Positions 1 through 25,379 of a stretch of 64,000 bases of DNA are shown piece after piece. The position numbers were made by a program, and so were the translations under genes. The notes under the pieces are model-generated. The model did no database searches. It was not told where the DNA came from and was given only the letters and a program-made list of their open reading frames with translations. The stretch spans positions 16-64,015 of the forward strand of contig JALHQL010000006.1 of assembly GCA_022841985.1 (NCBI GenBank). Reading direction: 5' to 3'. Source of the stretch: Minisyncoccota bacterium. Its GTDB lineage: Bacteria > Patescibacteriota > Minisyncoccia > Phycocordibacterales > Phycocordibacteraceae. Numbering within the stretch: position 1 is the first letter of the stretch; each line of letters begins with the position of its first letter.

Positions 1-3000
1 AGTGGCCGTACCTATCTGAGTGCCGCTTCGGTATATGCGGTATCCGGTGACACCCACGGCGTCAGTGGAGGCAGTCCAGGAGAGGTTGATTTGTGAAGAA
101 GAGACAGCGGTGGCGGTGAGGTTGGTGGGAGTGGAAGGGGTGGTGGTGTCGGAGGGGGGAGGGGGTGGAGGTGGAGTTACTCCGCCAGTATTTACTCCAA
201 TGACTTCAGCGCCAGTGATGTATGCACCGACAGGAATCGTTGCACCCGTGGTGCCACCAATGGAGTGAGCAACTCGACCTGCGGTCAATGCAGGAGATCC
301 TGCAGACAGTCGGAAATTTCCTCCGGCCGCATTGACGAATTGCGGATTCACGCCGCTAATACTATTAACATCTTGTCCCGGATAGGAACTCTGCCATTGG
401 GGAAACGTACGCGTAGTACCGTCCCGTTGGAAGTTAGTAAACGTATAGTAAAAATTACGATCAAACAGGATACGGTCCAATTCCCAGTTCATCCCAGCCC
501 CGGAACTTTCGGTGTAAATGCTGGTGGCACTACTATTCACAACAAGGTTGTTCTGTACGAAGTTATTCGAGTTGTCGGCCAGGACCGGCCCGCCATAAAC
601 CGCAACCCCGTGACCAGTGCCGTAGATCGTATTATTAACGAAGCGGGCGTTGCTTGGGCCGTCATGGGTTTGCCCACTCTGCAACGGATAGGGCCAGAGG
701 CAAATCCCACAACTACCGGCTGTCACTCCCGTATGGACGATATTCTGGTACCAGAGCGTGTAGACGGTTGGGGCTGTATGGAAATGTCGAAGATCCACCA
801 TTCCATAGGTCGTATTATGGATGAGGTTAAAGCGGACGATATCCTGCTCATCGGCGAATCGTGTAGGATCCACTGCCGGACCGTTAAAGCCGATGGCTTT
901 ATAGAAAATACCGCTGCCCGTGTCGTAGATATGATTGTTCTCCAGTGTTAATCCATCTGAGTTGTAGATTTGGATCCCGGCGGCATTTATATCATTGTTC
1001 AAGGGCCCATTCGTGAGGTTGTGAATCGTGCTGTTAGCCACTGTGACCAGACGTGAGCTTTGTATGCGCACGCCGGTGTGATTGTCATCGTAGGACCCTC
1101 CATTGCCGTTGATATGTAGATTGTATGCTCCACCGCCTGTCGTATTGAAAAACACTACAGCACCTGTATCTGGAGTAGTAACTGCGTTTGCTTCATGAAT
1201 TGAAAACCCATCCCAGACGATATAATTCCGGCCACTTGTGCCAATGAGTGGGTTGGGTAGGACAGAATGTGTGAGCGTCACCGTCCCTATAGCGCGAAAC
1301 GTTATAGGATTGCCACTGGTGCCCGAATTGACCGGGTTCAGAATGATATTCGTCAATGGACTAGATGATGTTGGGCCACTATTAGTATTGTAGGTTCCGG
1401 CAGTCACGAGAACCGTGTCCCCCGCCGTTGCTGCCTGTGCAGACACAGGCGACGCATAGTTAGTACTCCCCCACACAGCTCGTCCAATGGTGCACCAAGG
1501 AGTAGATGCGGAGTTGTTGGCATAGGTGGTGGCGTCAGAGCAAGTAGTAGTGTTGTTCACATAAAGAGTACGGCCCGAGCCAGTAACGGGCGGTGTTGTA
1601 TCTGTCTGCGTCGTCGCACTCACTCCTGCTGTTTGTGCAGACACATTCCCTGCGGCGTCATAGGCAGAGACGGTATAGGTGTATGAGGTGGAGGGTGAGA
1701 GACCGGTGTTTGAATAAGAGTTTGTTGTTGCGGTGGTGATTTGAGTACCGTTTCTGTATATGCGGTAGCCGGTGACACCCACGGCATCAGTGGAAGCAGT
1801 CCAGGAGAGGTTGATTTGTGAAGAAGAGATGGAGGTTGCGGTGAGGTTGGTGGGGGTGGAAGGGGCGGTGGTGTCGGTGGGGGCGGCTGCTTGGGTGGTG
1901 GCAGAGACACTTGCTGACTGGGTGGAGACATTCCCTGCTGCGTCATAGGCGGCGATGGTGTATGAGTATGCTGTTGCAGCAGTGAGACCGGTGTTGGAGT
2001 ATGAGATAGCAGTGGTGGTGGTGATTTGGACTCCGTTCCTGTAGATGCGGTAGCCGGTGACGGCAGTGTTGTCGGTGGAAGCAGTCCAGGAGAGGTTGAT
2101 CTGAGAGGAAGAGATGGAGGTGGCAGTGAGGTTGGTGGGGATGGTGGGAGCGGAAGTGTCTGAAGGAGGAGGGGTACCACCTGAGGTTTCGTCAGCACCG
2201 ATGTCGTATGGAGCAGAGCGGGTGGTGCCGTCGATGTCGGTTGAGAGGGCGAGGTATGGGTCGGAGGAGAGAGTGGCGCCGAAGTCGCGAGCGCCAGTGT
2301 CGGAGGAGGAGAGGTGGAGATCTCTACTTGTTTCATTTACAAACGAAACAGAAGTTGCATTTCTGGCATTCGATCCGGGAGCGTCAGATTGTGTAGGCCC
2401 TGAGAGACTATTCGAGCTTTGAGCATTAAATATACCCGAGTAGTTATCGGTGTTGTTATAGGAGAGGTTGTTCTTCGCTATGACAGTGATGCCGGAATTC
2501 TCAGCATTAGAAGCAATACCTATATGATTATTAAAAATGGTGTTGTTGTAAGCATATACAGTCTGATTTCCACTCCCACGGAAAATAAGTCCTCCGGAAT
2601 ATGCTGCTGCGCCGCGATTTATATCGTAAATAATATTATTAAATACTCTTAAAGTAGAACCCGCGGCACCTGAATTGACTAAAAGTCCAGATGACGGTGC
2701 AGTTGCGTCCCCTGCTCCACGAATAATGGAATCTGAAACACGTATATCTGTAACTCCAGTTACCAAAATACTCGAGATGTTTATTATATTCGAATACGAC
2801 TGAACACCAGTATTCCGTATCTGTAGCCCAGAAACTCGAACATTCTCCTCATTAATATTAAAAACTGAGGCCTGGTTTAGTAAAACTTCTAATCGATACT
2901 TGCTAGTATCCCACACCCCCGCATGTCGTGCTTCAGGAGCGGTATAGATACGGATGTAGCGGGTGGCGTCGGTGGTCCAGCCGTCGATGGTAAGAGCTGC

Positions 3001-3240
3001 AGTATCCGGATTTGTCCACACACCCTCAATACGCACCGTCTCTTGCTCATTGAGAGCGACAAGATCTCTCTGTCGTGCTGCTTCCCACGCAGAGAGAGAG
3101 GTGTAGCAGGTGGAGTAGCCGGTGCAGTCTTGGCGGATGAGAGAGACTGTTTCTGTTGCTGTTTGTGCAGATGCAGAGGGGGCAAAGATGAAGAAGCCGA
3201 CAAAGAGAATGGAGAGGATGGTTGTATTGGAACGGGTCAT
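1..3240 (-). CDS. large secreted cell-surface protein, partial (start at 3240, C-terminus runs past window start). It has a signal peptide, Asn/Thr-rich beta-helix-like repeats, and at least three fibronectin type III-like repeats.
   Basis: Reverse complement of 3181-3240 reads ATG ACC CGT ... = MTRSNTTILSILFVGFFIFAPSASAQTATETVSLIRQDCT, a signal peptide. The frame stays open past position 1. Fn3 hallmarks (ISSSQINLSW, VTGYRIYR) recur about every 290 bp. The listed + ORFs 20..268 and 265..951 and the - ORF 1620..2336 are other frames of this gene. Confidence 0.6.
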   Translation of the reverse strand, partial: MTRSNTTILSILFVGFFIFAPSASAQTATETVSLIRQDCTGYSTCYTSLSAWEAARQRDLVALNEQETVRIEGVWTNPDTAALTIDGWTTDATRYIRIYTAPEARHAGVWDTSKYRLEVLLNQASVFNINEENVRVSGLQIRNTGVQSYSNIINISSILVTGVTDIRVSDSIIRGAGDATAPSSGLLVNSGAAGSTLRVFNNIIYDINRGAAAYSGGLIFRGSGNQTVYAYNNTIFNNHIGIASNAENSGITVIAKNNLSYNNTDNYSGIFNAQSSNSLSGPTQSDAPGSNARNATSVSFVNETSRDLHLSSSDTGARDFGATLSSDPYLALSTDIDGTTRSAPYDIGADETSGGTPPPSDTSAPTIPTNLTATSISSSQINLSWTASTDNTAVTGYRIYRNGVQITTTTAISYSNTGLTAATAYSYTIAAYDAAGNVSTQSASVSATTQAAAPTDTTAPSTPTNLTATSISSSQINLSWTASTDAVGVTGYRIYRNGTQITTATTNSYSNTGLSPSTSYTYTVSAYDAAGNVSAQTAGVSATTQTDTTPPVTGSGRTLYVNNTTTCSDATTYANNSASTPWCTIGRAVWGSTNYASPVSAQAATAGDTVLVTAGTYNTNSGPTSSSPLTNIILNPVNSGTSGNPITFRAIGTVTLTHSVLPNPLIGTSGRNYIVWDGFSIHEANAVTTPDTGAVVFFNTTGGGAYNLHINGNGGSYDDNHTGVRIQSSRLVTVANSTIHNLTNGPLNNDINAAGIQIYNSDGLTLENNHIYDTGSGIFYKAIGFNGPAVDPTRFADEQDIVRFNLIHNTTYGMVDLRHFHTAPTVYTLWYQNIVHTGVTAGSCGICLWPYPLQSGQTHDGPSNARFVNNTIYGTGHGVAVYGGPVLADNSNNFVQNNLVVNSSATSIYTESSGAGMNWELDRILFDRNFYYTFTNFQRDGTTRTFPQWQSSYPGQDVNSISGVNPQFVNAAGGNFRLSAGSPALTAGRVAHSIGGTTGATIPVGAYITGAEVIGVNTGGVTPPPPPPPSDTTTPSTPTNLTATAVSSSQINLSWTASTDAVGVTGYRIYRSGTQIGTAT
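40..2125. repeat. three intragenic tandem copies, about 290 bp apart, of an Fn3-coding repeat
   Basis: Near-identical DNA 'gcagtccaggagaggttgatttgtgaagaagaga' with flanks at about 85-115, 1795-1830 and 2085-2120. The match extends about 80 bp each side. Confidence 0.7.
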
Positions 3241-3366
3241 GAGAGACTGTTCCGTACAGTATACCCCATCATGGGTATGGAATGTTCCTCTTTTAGTGTG
3301 GAGAATCGACTATCTCCCCAAACTCCTCCTCACCTGAAAACGTCCCTCTTTTTTAAAATTTAAATC

Positions 3367-4641
3367 TTAGTACTCCCGGAGAGAAACTTGTGCGTCGATC
3401 TTACGTGCGAGATCAAGAGCGACTTGTACCGCAATGAGGAGCGCCGTACCGCCGAGCACCAAGGTCGTGATACCGGTGAGCCCTTGAATGACCGCGGGAG
3501 AGACTGCAATGAGACCGAGGAAAACAGCTCCTGGGAACGTGACGCGATTCACCACCTTGCCGATATACTCTTCGGTTTCGCGACCGGGGCGCACGCCCGG
3601 AACGAAAGCTCCTGTCTTCTGGAGATTTTCTGCAACACGATGAGGTTCAAACGTGACTCCGGTATAGAAATATGTAAAGAGCACCACGAGAACGAAGTAG
3701 GCTGCTCCATATTCCCACGAATTGGAAAGGAACGCGGTGTACCAGAGTGCGGCACTTGATGCAAACGAGATGTTGAGTGCAGCAAGCATCGAGAGCGCCA
3801 TCTGCGGCAAAAGCAGGAGCGAAAGCGCGAAGATGATCGGCATAACACCCGCTTGCAAAAGCCGAATAGGGAGATAGGTCGCCGCGCCTTGCGAGAGCGC
3901 CGCGCCGCGCACGGCTCTGGCATAGGCAATCGGTATCGAACGTTCGGCATCGGAAACAACGACCACCGCATACATCATCGCAAGTGCAAGAACAGTAAAC
4001 GCGAGGTAGGCAGGAATATTTGCTGCCGTAGCCGCAAATATAGCCTGTGAAAGACTTGGAGGAAGAGTTGCGAGAATTCCTGCGAGAATGATAAGCGAAA
4101 CACCGTTTCCGATACCGAATTCAGTCACAAGCTCTCCAATCCACATGAGAAGCAACGCGCCTGCAGTAACAAGAACGATATTCGCAACAAGCGCAACCGT
4201 GCTCAATTGCGCTATGATTCCCTGATTCTCAAGAAGCGACAGAAAACTAAAAGCTTGCAAAACAGCGATTGGGATCGTAAGAAGACGACTCCATTGAACA
4301 AATTTTGCGCGCCCTGCCTCTCCCTCTTCGTGATACGCTCGTTTCACTTGCGGGAAAACAACAGTGCCGAGCTGCATAATAATCGAAGCGGTAATGAATG
4401 GACCAACACCGAGCATGACGATTGAAAGTTGTTCAAGTCCTCCTCCTGAAAAAATATTAAGGAGACCGAGGAATTGATTATTTTCGAAGAAGGAGGCGAG
4501 AGCAACCTTATCTACACCTGGAATTGGTATTGAGGCAAGAAGACGAAACAGTGCAAGAGCACCAATAAGAAAGAAAATGCGAAAACGAATTTCGGGATCC
4601 CCGAAAGCGAGCTTGAGTTTGTGAATTAAAGAATTAAGCAT
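3367..4641 (-). CDS. secY: preprotein translocase subunit SecY
   Basis: 10-TM protein, MLNSLIHKLKLAFGDPEIRFRIFFLIGALALFRL..., conserved position after rplO. Start taken at the internal ATG at 4641 (cat at 4639-4641) overlapping the rplO stop. Confidence 0.9.
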   Translation of the reverse strand: MLNSLIHKLKLAFGDPEIRFRIFFLIGALALFRLLASIPIPGVDKVALASFFENNQFLGLLNIFSGGGLEQLSIVMLGVGPFITASIIMQLGTVVFPQVKRAYHEEGEAGRAKFVQWSRLLTIPIAVLQAFSFLSLLENQGIIAQLSTVALVANIVLVTAGALLLMWIGELVTEFGIGNGVSLIILAGILATLPPSLSQAIFAATAANIPAYLAFTVLALAMMYAVVVVSDAERSIPIAYARAVRGAALSQGAATYLPIRLLQAGVMPIIFALSLLLLPQMALSMLAALNISFASSAALWYTAFLSNSWEYGAAYFVLVVLFTYFYTGVTFEPHRVAENLQKTGAFVPGVRPGRETEEYIGKVVNRVTFPGAVFLGLIAVSPAVIQGLTGITTLVLGGTALLIAVQVALDLARKIDAQVSLREY

Positions 4642-5086
4642 GAATGGTGCCGCCGGCAGCAAGAAGTGCAGTACGTGCGCCAGTAGACACTGTGCAGCCA
4701 TCAACAATCAAAGCTTTCGTGAGAGAGCCAACGCCAAGAATCTTTACAATCGGTGCACGACCTTTTGCACGGCGTACCAAATCCTTTGCAAGAAGTGTCG
4801 CAGGCGAAATCGTCTCGCCGGCCTTATAGACCGCTTCAATGGCAGAGAGATTAACTACTGAAACGGGAAGGCGATTCGTTCGAACCGTACGTGCACGATT
4901 CTTTCCGTGGCCACGAAGCTTTGGGAGCTTCTTGATGAGATCCCGAGACTCTGGACGTATCTTGTGTCCAGCGCGTGCGGTCTGTCCTTTACCTCCGCGA
5001 CCGGAAGTCTTGCCACGCTTGCCGCCGCGGCCGACAGGTGGATTTTTTCTATTCTTAGTGCGAGGAGAAAATGTGTGGAGTTGCAT
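4634..5086 (-). CDS. rplO: 50S ribosomal protein L15
   Basis: GRGGKRGKTSGRGGKGQTARAG motif. Start trimmed to MQLHTF (cat at 5084-5086). Confidence 0.85.
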   Translation of the reverse strand: MQLHTFSPRTKNRKNPPVGRGGKRGKTSGRGGKGQTARAGHKIRPESRDLIKKLPKLRGHGKNRARTVRTNRLPVSVVNLSAIEAVYKAGETISPATLLAKDLVRRAKGRAPIVKILGVGSLTKALIVDGCTVSTGARTALLAAGGTIHA

Positions 5087-5096
5087 ATATAAAATA

Positions 5097-5741
5097 TTAT
5101 TTCGCACGAAGCTTCTTGAGCGCTGCGACCGTTGCGCGAGCAATGGTGAGCTTATTCTTAGAGCGAGAGTGTATCTTAGTTACCACATCCGTCACCCCAG
5201 CAAGATCGAGCACTGTACGCACCGCTGAGCCAGCGACAAGACCTCGACCCTTCGAGGGGATGATTTCAACAGTGGAAGATGCGTATTTCATTGAAACTTG
5301 GTGTGGAATTGAACCTGAGGCCGTGCGAGGAACGACAAAGAGATGTTTCTTTGCATCGCGCGTCGCTTTATCAACGGCAAGAGCAGTATCAATTCCCTTC
5401 CCAAGACCGACTCCTACGCGACCCTTACGGTCACCGATAATAATCACAAGACTGAAATTAAAACGGCGGCCGCCGGCCATCACGCGAGCAACACGTCTCG
5501 CATCAATTGTTACTTGTTCGAACTCTCCGCGCTCACGTGGTGGACGAGCACGACTGCCTGTACGCGAAGCACGACCACGCTGAGATCCGCGAGCGCGAGG
5601 TGTGGCGGTCGCCGCAATAGGAGATGCCTCAGCGGAAACAGCTTCGGCCGACTCAATCTCACTGTCAACAGCACTATCAGCTGCGACCGGCTCAGCATCG
5701 TTCACTTTCTGTATAATCTCTGGTTCCATCGACATAGTCAT
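5097..5741 (-). CDS. rpsE: 30S ribosomal protein S5 with an acidic N-terminal extension
   Basis: GRRFNFSLVIIIGDRKGRVGVGLGKGIDTALAVDKA is the S5 dsRBD/S5 domain-2 signature. Confidence 0.9.
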   Translation of the reverse strand: MTMSMEPEIIQKVNDAEPVAADSAVDSEIESAEAVSAEASPIAATATPRARGSQRGRASRTGSRARPPRERGEFEQVTIDARRVARVMAGGRRFNFSLVIIIGDRKGRVGVGLGKGIDTALAVDKATRDAKKHLFVVPRTASGSIPHQVSMKYASSTVEIIPSKGRGLVAGSAVRTVLDLAGVTDVVTKIHSRSKNKLTIARATVAALKKLRAK

Positions 5742-20210: not shown

Positions 20211-20316
20211 AGGGTAAATAAAAAATAAAGCGCCGAGGCGTTAGAGTGAAGAATAGCCGAAAGCGCAAGAAAAGCAAAGGGGTGGATGAAATTTCATCCA
20301 CCCCTTGGAACGCATA

Positions 20317-20829
20317 TCATGCCTTCATATTTCTTAAAGAGCATAATTCAAAACGAACCTTGAGTCCTGACAATGCTCTTATGAGAGACTCTTTTACAGG
20401 ATTGGGTAACGATTCAGGGGAGATGACTGTGGCATCACATGCACACCCCATCTCACCCGTCACTTTGATAACTGCCAGGACCCATGATCCCATTATGGTT
20501 TCCGTCCATATTTCAGCGCGTGCTTTATCGGAGAAAAACCGAACATGCGCACCCTCATAGCCGTACTGACCCATCGAGTTCGCAAAGCCTTTCAACTTAC
20601 TACGAAAACGCAACACGTAGTAGGGACTTTTTGAATCCTCATACCTTTCATTTTCGCGCTTTTCCCATTCACAACAAGCAGAAAACGGAGATGAGCCAAC
20701 GCCAAATAGAGCTTTGAGACGTTCCCACCAGTTATCAACACATGTATTCCAACCTTCCGGTGGAAGATCGGATGGATCTAGAGGATTGAGTGGGAAAACC
20801 GGATGTTTGAAACGAAAACCAAACTTCAT
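20317..20829 (-). CDS. hypothetical protein B (170 aa), paralog of the adjacent 66-aa protein plus a C-terminal domain
   Basis: Shares PxxPLNPLDPSDLPPEGW...CCEWEKRE with 20826..21026. Start overlaps the stop of the upstream paralog (ATGA). Confidence 0.5.
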   Translation of the reverse strand: MKFGFRFKHPVFPLNPLDPSDLPPEGWNTCVDNWWERLKALFGVGSSPFSACCEWEKRENERYEDSKSPYYVLRFRSKLKGFANSMGQYGYEGAHVRFFSDKARAEIWTETIMGSWVLAVIKVTGEMGCACDATVISPESLPNPVKESLIRALSGLKVRFELCSLRNMKA

Positions 20830-21026
20830 ATCGAACCTCTTGTATGTCTCTTTCCCTCACGTTTTTGCCATTCACAGCAATCTACAAACAAGCCTGACCC
20901 AAAACCAAATAGGGCCCTGCGAAAATCCTGAGTATCAATGTCCGTTGCCCAACCTTCTGGTGGAGGATCGGATGAATCTAAAGGATTATATGGATCAACT
21001 GGCAACGTGAAAGCAAATCCGCGCAT
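20826..21026 (-). CDS. hypothetical small protein A (66 aa) with the PLDxSDxPPEGW / CCEWxKRE motif
   Basis: Strong AAAGGAGG Shine-Dalgarno upstream (revcomp of 21030-21045). Located between the rpsG terminator and fusA. Confidence 0.5.
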   Translation of the reverse strand: MRGFAFTLPVDPYNPLDSSDPPPEGWATDIDTQDFRRALFGFGSGLFVDCCEWQKREGKRHTRGSI

Positions 21027-21079
21027 AGTGAGACCTCCTTTTTATATATGAACTTCCAACATGGACAGTACCAGAGATG

Positions 21080-21117
21080 CAACAAAAACAAAAACGCCCC
21101 GTACGGGGCGTTTTTTA
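21080..21117. terminator. rho-independent terminator after rpsL-rpsG
   Basis: aaaacgccccgtacggggcgttttttatt. On the minus strand the hairpin is followed by tttttgtttttg. Confidence 0.65.
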
Positions 21118-21212
21118 TTCTATAAAAACTACTACCAAGCGAGTGAGGGGAGAATGAAATTCCTATTTGATTCTCCCGAACGAGCGCAGGGAGCAAGCTC
21201 GGCTCTGCGAGC

Positions 21213-21677
21213 TTACCAAGCGAAGTGAGCGAAGGCCTTGTTGGCATCGGCCATACGGTGCATCTCGTCCTTCTTCTTGATCGCATCGCCTTCATTTTTT
21301 GCAGCCAGAAGGAACTCGGCAGCAAGCTTCTCCGCCATCGGCTTACCTTTCTTTGCACGAGCGGCATTGATGAGCCAACGGAACGAAAGTGCAAGACGAC
21401 GGCTCTGTGGGACTTCGCGAGGAACTTGATAGTTTGCACCCCCGACACGGCGAGAGCGGACTTCCATCAAAGGCGAGACATTGCGGAGCGCCGCTTCAAA
21501 AGTTTCAAGCGGATTTTCACCACCCTTCTCTATCGTAGCGAGTGCATCATAGACAACGGCACGAGCAGTATCCTTCTTGCCGTCCCACATGACAGCGTTG
21601 ATAAAACGAGTGAGTGTTTCCGACCCGTACTTAAGGTCGGCACGCCAGACACGCTTCTTTTTGAGAGGTCGGCGCAT
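21213..21677 (-). CDS. rpsG: 30S ribosomal protein S7
   Basis: KKDTARAVVYDALATIEK...SRRVGGANYQVPREV. Confidence 0.95.
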   Translation of the reverse strand: MRRPLKKKRVWRADLKYGSETLTRFINAVMWDGKKDTARAVVYDALATIEKGGENPLETFEAALRNVSPLMEVRSRRVGGANYQVPREVPQSRRLALSFRWLINAARAKKGKPMAEKLAAEFLLAAKNEGDAIKKKDEMHRMADANKAFAHFAW

Positions 21678-22236: not shown

Positions 22237-23316
22237 TTACTTCTCATCGATTGGTTCGCGGTAAGGATCGATGGAGTATGACTTCGCCGGCTCTACCGGA
22301 GATTTGGGAGCGGCAGACGCGGGGACAGTAGGAGAAATCGGTTGTGGCTGAAGCGGCGGGACGATGGCTTTTATTGTAGGAGTGGCGGGTGTAGCTTGGA
22401 TTGGGGGAATGATGCGATTCATTCCTTCGGGGTGCCGTGTAGCAAAAGATTCGGGGACAGATTGCATTTTAGGAGCAGTAGGCAAGGTACCCACAGAAGG
22501 AGAAATGCGGACTGGTTGAGATTCCGGGATGAGAGGCTTAACTTTTGAAACGACAGGGATTGTATTCGATGACGGAGTTACGGGCATCGGAACTTTATTA
22601 AAAGCTATATGCGGCTCTTCGTGATCCGCAAGCCGCTTGCTGCTATCGAACTGTTTTGGAGGTGTCATCATGAAAGATCGTCCGGGCGGAATATTGGAAG
22701 CAGATGTTTTACTCGGCAGCTTACTTGGCGATGAAACTATCAAGTTGATGCCTCCGGAAGACTGAGGCGGTCGAACGATGTTTTTCTGCGGGACACTGAT
22801 AGGAACATTCGACGGAATGTCACGCTTTGGGATGCTTGAGAAACTAGCGGCAGGAGTAGCGAGAGGAAATTTATTTATTGGAGGAGAATATGTGGGAGAC
22901 TGCAGCGGCGGCGCGTAATTTTTTTCACGAGTAGGTATAGCTGCTGGCGTGACAGCCGCCGGCCTTGCCGGCGGCGCAGCATTCATTCCCCCGCTCCTCA
23001 TCTGCTCTCGTAGCGGCACAAAAATCTGCGTATTTATATCCTGGGCAATATTTTCTATTGTTTTTTTATCGAGTTTTGCTTCTTCAGCGAGCGCTTGAGT
23101 AAATTCAGTAGGATTCTCAATACCCATCAAAAGCAGCATCATTTCTCTCTCAAGAATTCCCCCTTGATCAATACGGAGATTGTATTTAGTTATCAGACTT
23201 TTCGCGACCTCTGTATACTTCCCCTGCGAAAGATAGTTACGTATGATTGGAGGCAAAGTTCGCATCACTTCTTTGATGCTTTCCTCGAGGGTTAAACTTG
23301 ATTGGTCTTGATTCAT
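22237..23316 (-). CDS. hypothetical protein, about 110-aa N-terminal domain then a long Pro-rich low-complexity region
   Basis: Last gene of a four-gene minus-strand operon (28347 to 22237). No catalytic motifs. Confidence 0.45.
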   Translation of the reverse strand: MNQDQSSLTLEESIKEVMRTLPPIIRNYLSQGKYTEVAKSLITKYNLRIDQGGILEREMMLLLMGIENPTEFTQALAEEAKLDKKTIENIAQDINTQIFVPLREQMRSGGMNAAPPARPAAVTPAAIPTREKNYAPPLQSPTYSPPINKFPLATPAASFSSIPKRDIPSNVPISVPQKNIVRPPQSSGGINLIVSSPSKLPSKTSASNIPPGRSFMMTPPKQFDSSKRLADHEEPHIAFNKVPMPVTPSSNTIPVVSKVKPLIPESQPVRISPSVGTLPTAPKMQSVPESFATRHPEGMNRIIPPIQATPATPTIKAIVPPLQPQPISPTVPASAAPKSPVEPAKSYSIDPYREPIDEK

Positions 23317-23327
23317 AGCGGTATCGA

Positions 23328-25379
23328 TTAGTGTGGTTTCTCTTCGGGTTTATCCTTTTTTTCAGGTTTATTTTCTTTTCCTGGCTCCTCTGGTTCTTCA
23401 GCTTTAACAAGATCTTTAACTTTTTTCCATTTATCTTCCTTCTTCAAAGCATCCTTGATAATTTTATTTGCCGCAAGCGACCCGCCAGGACCGAACACAA
23501 AAGAACTTAGTAAGGATCCTTTCACATTTTCTGCATAGGCTACCTGAAACGCTTTCTTTTCTTTGGAAATATTTCCGGTCACTTTTTTCTCATTTTCCTC
23601 CGCCTCTTTAAGCGGCTTGTTTATCGTCTCAAGAGTATCTTTAATCGTCTTAAGTTCTTGACGCGCAGCGGTGAGTTTCTGTTTGGTCTCCTCATCTCTC
23701 CGAACTCGTTCCGGACCAACAATAGTGGAGCTTGAATTTTGTTTTTCTTCTTTTTCAAGATCCTCTACTGTCTTTATTTGTTTTTTTATTTTCTCTTCAA
23801 TATCTTCACCTCCCCTTGATTTGAATTTTGCTTTTTCGTCTGAAACAACTTTTTCTGCTTCTGAACGTATCTTCATCACTCCCGCGACCTCTTTTGCTTT
23901 GCGAGTATCGATATCTTCACCGACAGACTTTATGTATGCTTGGTGCGCCTTGACTGATTTGTCCTGCTGGCCTCGATAACCTCCTTCCTGCGCGGCTCCA
24001 GGATTTATTTTTCCGTCCGAAAGATTCTGAATTACCCCGGTGCTCCGTACATCATAATTGGCCTTCGCACCGTACGTAAGAGTTCCACTCACAGCACGGC
24101 CAATTACCGGAACTCGCGCAAGTTTACTCGAACTAAATCGTCTCGATGCTGCGTTAAATCCTAACCCGGCCGTAGAACGCATACCGGCAGCCGCGAGACC
24201 AAATGAGAGCTTGCCGGCGGTTTTCATCGCCCAATCGCCGCCGATGGCACCCAATTTCTTCGAGAAATACGTGACGGCAAGAAGAAGTCCCATCGCGACG
24301 GAGAAGGAGAGGAGCATACTCGCAAGTCCAGGCAAATTAAAACCTCCGCTTGTCTGAATAAACCCTAGATAATCAGGCTTGGGGCCGAACCGCAGGAAGC
24401 TTGGATCGGTAATAATCGCAAGAGCTATATAGAGCAAAAGGAGTAAAATCGGCGCAGTAATAGTCTGTTTAATAAGCGTATCCCACCACATCTGCGACGT
24501 AGAAGCGAGTTGCGGCACTGCCCATCCTGCAAAACCTATGGGCGAGAGAAGAATGAGGAAGATGAGCACAATAAAACGCACGATGAGTATAAACGCGAGC
24601 GAGAACATCACGAAGGCAGCAACGATAAAGAGCAAGATGCCTAGCATGCCGATGAACATAATATTGTCGCCCTGAAATACCGGTATGGTGTTATTACGAG
24701 CCGCTCCATATAAATTAGCCAATCCAAGATTGGACATGATTTTTTGCGAGATAACTTCATTTGAAATGGAAGACCCTGCTGACCCGGCCTGTGTCAATAC
24801 ATCCCCGCCTGACACAGAAAGTGTTGATCCCGGCATCTGACCACCGTTTATCTGCTTATAAAACTGTGTGGCGAAGAGATTGCCCGCGTCAATAATCGCC
24901 GAAGTCGCGAAAAGTGAAAAATTCATAAATACGGCGGCGATAATCAACATCGGAATCATCTTTTTTCCACCACCATACCAATCCACGTTTAATATGGTGG
25001 TTATGCCGATAGCGAGAAAGCCGAATATGAGCAAAATGTTTCCGATGTCACGCAAGATGCGCCAAGCGACGCCAACCGCCTGAAGTTCTTTCACATACTC
25101 CCCCATTTTAACGACGGTGTAGAACACTGCGTAATCGAGCGTTACCATCGCAATGCCCAAGAGCCAGGCAAAAATGCTCATGATCTTTTGCATGACGGTA
25201 CCAATTACATTATCTGCGGAAGCGCCAAAACTAAGTGGTATTTCTTCAGAAACATCATTTGTGGGTGCTTGTTCGATAGCTGGAGGAGACGTCTGTGCAT
25301 ACGCGGCGGGCACTAAAGCGCCCGCCGCGCTTATGATAAGAGCGAGAGAGATGCCCGAAATGGTTAAGAATCGTCGCAT
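23328..25379 (-). CDS. polytopic membrane protein (signal peptide, several TM segments, Lys/Glu-rich C-terminal tail). Topology resembles TrbL/VirB6-like proteins.
   Basis: MRRFLTISGISLALIISAAGALVPAAYAQ, then multiple hydrophobic segments, then a KE-rich tail. The family assignment is inference only. Confidence 0.45.
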   Translation of the reverse strand: MRRFLTISGISLALIISAAGALVPAAYAQTSPPAIEQAPTNDVSEEIPLSFGASADNVIGTVMQKIMSIFAWLLGIAMVTLDYAVFYTVVKMGEYVKELQAVGVAWRILRDIGNILLIFGFLAIGITTILNVDWYGGGKKMIPMLIIAAVFMNFSLFATSAIIDAGNLFATQFYKQINGGQMPGSTLSVSGGDVLTQAGSAGSSISNEVISQKIMSNLGLANLYGAARNNTIPVFQGDNIMFIGMLGILLFIVAAFVMFSLAFILIVRFIVLIFLILLSPIGFAGWAVPQLASTSQMWWDTLIKQTITAPILLLLLYIALAIITDPSFLRFGPKPDYLGFIQTSGGFNLPGLASMLLSFSVAMGLLLAVTYFSKKLGAIGGDWAMKTAGKLSFGLAAAGMRSTAGLGFNAASRRFSSSKLARVPVIGRAVSGTLTYGAKANYDVRSTGVIQNLSDGKINPGAAQEGGYRGQQDKSVKAHQAYIKSVGEDIDTRKAKEVAGVMKIRSEAEKVVSDEKAKFKSRGGEDIEEKIKKQIKTVEDLEKEEKQNSSSTIVGPERVRRDEETKQKLTAARQELKTIKDTLETINKPLKEAEENEKKVTGNISKEKKAFQVAYAENVKGSLLSSFVFGPGGSLAANKIIKDALKKEDKWKKVKDLVKAEEPEEPGKENKPEKKDKPEEKPH

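Follow-up and report, generated by a model that had tools for sequence, protein, structure and literature searches.

Why should two small genes stand between rpsG and fusA, the genes for ribosomal protein S7 and elongation factor G (EF-G), and do they serve translation there? We addressed this question in a 64,000-nucleotide stretch of a Minisyncoccota bacterium (Patescibacteriota; assembly GCA_022841985.1, contig JALHQL010000006.1), hereafter the window, where two open reading frames (ORFs) encoding 66 and 170 amino acids (aa), ORF66 and ORF170, occupy the space between the two genes. The original prediction had placed both ORFs behind a terminator, with a Shine-Dalgarno (SD) sequence before the first and an ATGA overlap between them, and each of these elements was recovered at the coordinates given below. 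It had also proposed that the pair is co-regulated with the translation factors or, alternatively, is a selfish insertion. The two ORFs are real protein-coding genes built from two unrelated modules, N and C. The reading that we favor, tentatively, is that the locus is an insulated accessory module encoding two partner proteins, perhaps akin to a toxin-antitoxin pair, and that it would sit here because the spacer between these strongly conserved genes is permissive and prone to recombination, not because it has a job in translation.

The locus, from rpsL to tuf, is laid out as follows.

22093-21680, minus strand: rpsL.
21213-21677, minus strand: rpsG, the boundary gene upstream of the cassette, an ORF of 154 aa whose S7 product is 99% identical to that of Ca. 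Kaiserbacteria JAPLWH010000006, an identity by which the organism is a Ca. Kaiserbacteria (Paceibacteria).
21115-21090, with a T-tail to about 21080, minus strand: terminator-like hairpin 1 (11-bp stem, GUAC loop), closing the rpsL-rpsG unit.
21043-21079, minus strand: upstream region of the cassette, ATCTCTGGTACTGTCC...TTCATATA, conserved in seven of seven aligned loci.
21070-21065, minus strand: TACTGT, a putative -10 box of a presumptive promoter.
21042-21035, minus strand: SD of ORF66, AAAGGAGG, 8 nucleotides ahead of the ORF66 ATG.
21026-20826, minus strand: ORF66, a stand-alone N module (copy A, canonical type), 66 aa, acidic, pI 5.1.
20829-20317, minus strand: ORF170, an N'-C fusion protein of 170 aa.
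20829-20826, minus strand: ATGA, the ORF66 stop overlapping the ORF170 start.
20844-21042, minus strand: duplication unit 1, the SD plus N codons 1-61.
20641-20843, minus strand: duplication unit 2, a degenerate SD (AGAGG) plus N' codons 1-63 of ORF170 (copy B).
20317-20640, minus strand: C module, ORF170 residues 64-170, a basic domain predicted to be alpha/beta.
20306-20277, with a T-rich tail to 20267, minus strand: terminator-like hairpin 2 (13-bp stem), closing the cassette.
20277-20250, minus strand: putative fusA promoter-like site, TTGCTT-16 nt-TATTCT.
20210-18063, minus strand: fusA (EF-G), the boundary gene downstream of the cassette, a 715-aa ORF; EF-G Pfam domains are on record for the ortholog at locus L085.
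17807-16608, minus strand: tuf.

The N-terminal paralogy of the pair, noted from the outset, stands: by BLASTP, the ORF66 and ORF170 products share 35 of 60 residues (58% identity, E = 2e-21), far above chance. The ORF66-like similarity is limited to ORF170 residues 1-63, and the other ~107 residues constitute a separate module, so that the earlier description of a duplicated gene applies to N but not to the remainder of ORF170, which is an unrelated module. In a word-indexed search of 5.8 billion proteins, only three homologs of ORF170 were returned (P0002-P0004), all with 60-69% identity and at the same locus. A hidden Markov model (HMM) built from four full-length proteins gave 54 hits among 1.84 billion cluster representatives, and these divided into about 38 clusters that align to profile positions 1-65 only (N) and about 15 (97-127 aa) that align to positions 65-161 only (C). 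This division indicates that ORF170 is a fusion of two modules that are normally separate. N-C fusions are confined to the sub-clade of the window, where the in-frame fusion is present in four genomes.

The N module is an acidic, proline-rich segment of about 60 aa with the consensus FxFxxPvDPxxPlDxxDPPPxGW...alFG...lFxxCxEWexRElxR. Among 37 sequences, F6, D20, P23, R56 and E57 are invariant, and P12, P15, W26, C50, W53 and R60 are present in at least 90%; ORF66 retains all of the family-invariant residues. The CCEW motif that had been proposed as conserved is so for its first cysteine (C50), which is family-wide, whereas the second is confined to the sub-clade of the window. Stand-alone N genes elsewhere encode 53-113 aa, with a few longer, and the start of the protein is conserved from residue 1-3 throughout the family. 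The N' part of ORF170 (copy B) is of a divergent type, with PVFP, DLPP and an NWWE insert, and has lost the conserved Asp of PvDP. A low-confidence model of N has two short predicted helices in a proline-rich chain. The ratio of nonsynonymous to synonymous substitution rates (dN/dS, omega) is 0.1-0.4 for N.

The C module, of about 105 aa, was modeled by AF2 from 24 sequences with the topology a1-b1-b2-b3-b4-a2-b5 (pLDDT 89.6, pTM 0.79); the final model was restricted to this module since a combined N and C alignment made with MAFFT had put C-only proteins onto N. Y, G and F occupy its invariant positions, no catalytic-type polar residue is conserved, and the omega of C is 0.3-0.6. Structure prediction, one of the checks suggested at the start, thus yielded a confident fold for C, but a Foldseek comparison of the model with PDB found no fold match (best E 0.11, TM 0.3). 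Neither N nor C has a match in Pfam, NCBIfam, PADLOC, PHROGs or PDB. The dN/dS values, the conserved N start and the confident C fold together establish that both ORFs are protein-coding genes.

Two matches were set aside. Residues 19-115 of ORF170 resembled Fib_succ_major (PF09603; E 0.0016, 19.2 bits versus a cut-off of 33.9 bits), a match that straddles the N/C boundary, recurs in none of the 24 C and none of the 37 N members, and was judged to be chance. The 7943-aa protein P0026 was hit by the fusion profile at E 7e-11 through six C-like low-complexity repeats; it is a repeat adhesin and a spurious match, and its case shows that profile matches to positions 110-165 alone are untrustworthy. 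Among the C-only proteins P0030, P0038, P0040, P0048, P0063 and P0066, many begin MFGW(L/Y)xK, within the N-terminal 15-40 residues. A short PPxSW or DSW stretch ahead of the C domain of these stand-alone proteins (RIPPDSW in P0040) recalls the DPPPxGW motif in N and might represent a minimal N-like peptide that these proteins carry themselves.

To place the cassette among its relatives, which were found in part with a hand-made degenerate DNA pattern for the family, we compared the loci (numbered L) that carry either module. At the rpsG-fusA junction, L091 and L108 have N and C as separate neighboring genes, 24-35 nucleotides apart and each preceded by an SD. N stands alone in L004, the closest species representative, in L085-L090 and L097, and in the distant L111, L103/L109 and L119, and C stands alone in L084 and L116. 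The fusion occurs in L001-L003 as a single gene of 169-170 aa with no 66-aa ORF and the same flanking hairpins, and the arrangement of N followed by N'-C is found in the window only. Repeated adjacency of the two modules, and their one fusion, make it very likely that they act together.

Conservation of this synteny, the other check suggested at the start, was partial. At S7 identities of 96% or more to the window, all loci have N and/or C at the junction, and the next neighbors (94-95%) are without either; among the 80 species representatives closest by S7, a single one (L004) carries N or C. In total, 13 loci have N or C exactly at the rpsG-fusA junction, versus 5 contexts elsewhere. The loci found outside the str genes are L105, L113-L115, L117/L118, L120/L121 and L122/L123, in genomes of 39 to 63% GC. 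Away from the str genes, N is present in four lineages, near tpiA, near an adenylate-kinase-like gene, near MacB and within a suf cluster, and C in one, beside a META-domain gene and upstream of RecQ. Within the locus neighborhoods, which were the part of the genomes searched, C is without N in L084, L116 and L113. Scanning genomes with the fusion alignment gave no hits, and the family is missing from nearly all species-representative genomes. The suf copies (L122 3501-3932, L123 3343-3774) encode a 143-aa N-family protein with a C-terminal extension, located on the opposite strand inside a SufB/SufD-NifU-cysteine desulfurase cluster of a 39% GC genome.

The anatomy of the cassette and the history that we now propose for it are, in our judgment, very probably correct. 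The ancestral state was likely N then C as two adjacent genes, as still observed in L091 and L108, and in the sub-clade of the window a deletion of ~100 nucleotides joined them into one 170-aa gene. In the multiple DNA alignment, the fusion lacks the N tail, the spacer and about the first nine codons of C, with L091 reading '...KERYKNAQ...KR* ... MWFRTLPNDSESPIYVLRF' where the window reads '...NERYEDSKSPYYVLRF'. The window also has ~200 nucleotides more than L001-L003. After His61 of ORF66, the stretch ACAAGAGGTTCGAT-ATG is a copy of the SD region GGAGGTTCGGT-ATG present in L002 and L003, which identifies the duplicated unit as the SD plus N codons 1-61. Tandem duplication of this ~200-nucleotide unit gave a stand-alone N (ORF66) followed by N'-C (ORF170), with the two overlapping at ATGA.

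Substitution rates date the duplication. Between the window and L001, copy A and rpsG both have a dS of 0.60, C one of 0.59 and rpsL one of 0.67, and this agreement of cassette and flanks indicates vertical inheritance within the sub-clade. The dS between the two N copies of the window is 1.68, as compared with ~0.6 between species, indicating that the duplication predates the split from L001-L003. Compared site by site, the N of L001 and L003 has an A-like 5' part and a B-like 3' part, and that of L002 is B-like; L001 and L002 are nearly identical in C (dS 0.03) but strongly different in N (dS 0.28, dN 0.19). The simplest reading of these observations is that the single gene of L001-L003 is a tandem ancestor that collapsed through recombination between the copies, at different points in different genomes, with import of a divergent allele as an alternative explanation for the differences in N. 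In dN to outgroups, both N copies of the window are raised (0.25-0.37 versus 0.15-0.27 for single-copy orthologs), as expected for partly redundant duplicates. The cassette as a whole has a dN of 0.15-0.20 against 0.003 for S7 at a dS of ~0.6, that is, 50-100 times that of S7.

If the pair is old and vertically inherited in the sub-clade, what holds it at this position? The original prediction had taken rpsG and fusA to be almost universally adjacent, and this premise fails in the clade. We measured the rpsG-fusA gap in 68 related Paceibacteria genomes, those species representatives in which both genes could be reached. It spans 5 to 2834 bp (median ~480 bp), falling below 200 bp in 22 genomes and reaching 400 bp or more in 39. 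The ORFs within these gaps are mostly unrelated singletons, and include a PIN domain, a SocA_Panacea pair, NlpC/P60, Peptidase_M15_4 and CofD; among L004-L083, examples are L005 3662-4048, L030 745-1652, L055 3694-4593, L072 3508-4497 and L078 4633-6195. Two of these cargoes are parts of toxin-antitoxin systems, PIN in L005 and the SocA_Panacea pair in L030/L035. Cargo in Kaiserbacteria/Paceibacteria also comprises a GlmM-like gene and many orphan ORFs. A 137-aa ORF in the gap of L019 (3589-4002) has a weak match to the C-module HMM (E 0.0034) and is possibly a far-diverged member of C, in which case the family at the junction would be broader. A literature search found no paper on the Patescibacteria rpsG-fusA junction.

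The spacer is also bounded by signals of its own. To the single terminator noted earlier after rpsG, which is indeed present, we add a second after ORF170, so that the cassette is bracketed by two terminator-like hairpins. In the DNA alignment, hairpin 1 is kept with compensatory stem changes in L001-L004, L091 and L108, and hairpin 2 is kept in L001-L003 and L091. The cassette-less L017, L021 and L026 have a terminator after rpsG, then the same promoter-like box and leader before fusA, and the TTGCTT-16-TATTCT site is also kept in the cassette-bearing loci. From these sequence patterns, rpsL-rpsG and fusA-tuf appear to be separate units in this clade, with the spacer between them a permissive landing site. 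Two terminators, an upstream region and SD belonging to the cassette, a promoter-like site for fusA, fast protein evolution and copies away from the str genes all argue against the proposed co-regulation with translation factors. The selfish-insertion proposal fits better, but the gap in the window has no mobility gene (no integrase, transposase or att-type repeats were found there) and searches of IMG/VR patterns, INPHARED phages and PLSDB plasmids gave no match. Comparative genomics has described chromosomal integration hot-spots between conserved core genes. The rpsG-fusA spacer shares with them highly conserved flanks, a variable gap and lineage-specific, unrelated cargo across the 68 relatives, and differs in the missing integrase, transposase and att-type repeats and in the vertical inheritance of the cassette within the sub-clade.

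The reading that we favor follows this layout. The cassette sits in the spacer between the rpsL-rpsG terminator and the fusA promoter-like site, and is probably transcribed from its own promoter and translationally coupled. By Rosetta-stone logic, N and C would be binding partners. Most likely, acidic N would bind C, which is basic and does not look like an enzyme, and would neutralize or regulate it, much as in a toxin-antitoxin pair or a factor with its anti-factor. The charge asymmetry of the modules (median pI 5.2 for N and 9.0 for C) is typical of neutralizing pairs. This mechanism of partnership and neutralization, considered by itself, is a possibility that we hold with some doubt.

Type II toxin-antitoxin modules include fused forms, such as CapRel(SJ46) and EzeT. 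The likeness to them lies in a small acidic upstream gene close to or overlapping a basic downstream gene of ~100 aa, in patchy distribution and fast protein evolution, in the coexistence of fusions and solo genes, and in the genuine toxin-antitoxin parts that some relatives have at this junction. Two adjacent co-oriented small genes, the arrangement that defines such modules, are seen for N and C in L091 and L108, and as the ATGA overlap in the window. The folds of the known toxin superfamilies (RelE/ParE, MazF, PIN, HipA, Doc, zeta) are not found in C, which by hhalign had no similarity to E. coli RelE (probability 0.4%), and the DNA-binding domains of antitoxins (RHH, HTH, AbrB, Phd) are not found in N. 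Given these failed comparisons of toxin fold and antitoxin DNA-binding domain, we do not assign the pair to the type II modules; by analogy, it may work like one.

Several observations weigh against the accessory-pair reading. C matches no known toxin fold or family, and the 37 N sequences have no match in Pfam or PDB and no recognizable DNA-binding domain. Both modules occur solo at the locus, and the C-only L084 and L116 are awkward for a classical toxin; N clusters are also ~2.5 times as numerous as C clusters. The AF2 model of the whole 170-aa protein, from four sequences, has a pLDDT of 45 and is uninformative on N-C contact. A scan of the locus with the sigma-70 consensus returned no site, the fusA box scoring under its threshold, and the promoter assignments were made by eye. 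Finally, N or C is found at the same junction where S7 is only 58-70% identical, which points to a possible tie to rpsG/fusA.

This last point supports the main alternative, which we consider unlikely: that one or both proteins attach to the ribosome, S7 or EF-G, perhaps to modulate translocation or hibernation in some Paceibacteria, and are for that reason kept beside rpsG and fusA. The excess of exact junction loci (13 versus 5 elsewhere), extending to S7 identities, with the window or with one another, of ~59-70% in L111, L103/L109 and L119, is consistent with such a role, as are co-inheritance with the str genes at equal dS, the strong SD of ORF66 and the basic C module (pI ~9), compatible with RNA binding. 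However, terminators on both sides and the promoter-like site of fusA separate the pair from its neighbors; the pair evolves with a dN 50- to 100-fold that of S7 at equal dS; its distribution is patchy even among close relatives, with one carrier in 80 and 94-95% S7 neighbors without it; N and C are also found at non-str sites, and the junction holds many unrelated genes in relatives. There is also no similarity to any translation family, including hibernation promoting factor (HPF), the latter by an hhalign comparison of C with the E. coli sequence. Near-universal presence and S7-like purifying selection, which mark core translation factors, are seen for neither module. A partial parallel is GU_19737823, of unassigned function, which lies between rpsF-rpsR and rplI in Pseudomonadales and has a fitness phenotype on spectinomycin (PMC9132574). 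Like the cassette, it is lineage-restricted and held among translation genes; unlike the variable rpsG-fusA site, its site is fixed, and the likeness is one of position only, with no homology implied.

Somewhat less probable still is the view that ORF66 is a decaying by-product of partial tandem duplication, with ORF170 alone functional, as in L001-L003. The three sister species do make do with the single gene, and ORF66 ends in a junction-derived tail (TRGSI*) and has a dN to outgroups of 0.21-0.27 versus 0.15-0.20 for L001/L003. Yet ORF66 has stayed intact through a copy dS of 1.68, older than the species split at ~0.6, and has all of the invariant residues, the strongest SD and a length typical of stand-alone N genes. 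N-only genes also occupy the same site in L004 and L085, and of the two copies ORF66 is the canonical one, the fused N' being that without the conserved Asp of PvDP.

DPPP strongly stalls ribosomes in an EF-P-dependent manner, and mgtP-type leaders use proline runs. That N is a regulatory upstream ORF, where stalling at DPPP(x)GW would sense EF-P or translation capacity and act by way of the hairpins after the ORFs to control C or fusA, is nevertheless very improbable even with its position just upstream of fusA, as N is 53-113 aa, conserved over its full length (omega 0.1-0.4), has its proline run ~120 nucleotides ahead of the stop and far from any hairpin, reads DLPP, DPAP or DPCP there in several members, forms an in-frame fusion with C in four genomes, and is also present at loci without a downstream partner.

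A bolder proposition, to which we give a low probability, is that N and C are either a new Patescibacteria-specific system tied to translation or a new toxin-antitoxin family with cis-fused and duplicated-antitoxin variants. In the translation-tied version, basic C would bind the ribosome, EF-G or the S7 mRNA and acidic, proline-rich N would modulate it, and this tie would hold the genes at the rpsG-fusA junction through order-level divergence; a translation link, if true, would offer a handle on elongation tuning in ultra-small bacteria with reduced ribosomes. Whatever their role, N and C are two new small-protein families in the Candidate Phyla Radiation (CPR), whose separate, fused, solo and duplicated variants amount to evolution's own domain-interaction experiment, and C adds a confidently predicted alpha/beta fold with no PDB match by Foldseek. 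The break in rpsG-fusA adjacency in most Paceibacteria genomes, by a terminator-to-promoter spacer that gathers cargo, bears on operon-based annotation and on marker-gene synteny assumptions in CPR genomes.

Other features of the region were noted. Upstream of rpsL, the window encodes a 359-aa Pro/Ser-rich low-complexity protein (22237-23316, minus strand) and a 683-aa multi-pass membrane protein with a Lys/Glu-rich tail (23328-25379, minus strand), both without Pfam hits on record. The 359-aa gene is kept in L001, where it is preceded by genes for 648 and 750 aa (379-5607).

Directly 3' of the rpsG stop is a conserved structured RNA of ~85 nucleotides (window 21118-21212, minus strand), which is also present in L003 (425-520), L004 (3460-3555), L108 (434-530), L009, L015, L031 and L011, and is deleted in L001/L002. 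A short hairpin is followed by an outer stem around a long hairpin, GGGAGAAUCAAAU-AGGA-AUUUCAUUCUCCC, and the end of the element, CGCUUGGUAGUAG, mimics the 3' end of rpsG. This apparent repeat was considered as an att-type insertion scar and rejected, since the element covaries as a structured RNA and also occurs in relatives that lack the N/C cassette. RNAalifold on eight sequences gave 22 pairs, 9 of them with compensatory double changes, and the minimum free energy (MFE) z-score is -5; Rfam gave sub-threshold noise only on the region. The element could be an operator for a ribosomal protein, perhaps S7, or a 3' untranslated region element.

At the other end of the spacer, a GC hairpin (CGCC-UC-GGCG type) and a U/A-rich tract lead up to the fusA ATG (20211-20245, minus strand), with no evident SD. 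The same hairpin is found in L010, L013, L017, L021, L026, L027, L029 and L031, even where the gap is 39 nucleotides (L010), and may be an attenuator or a leader for SD-independent initiation.

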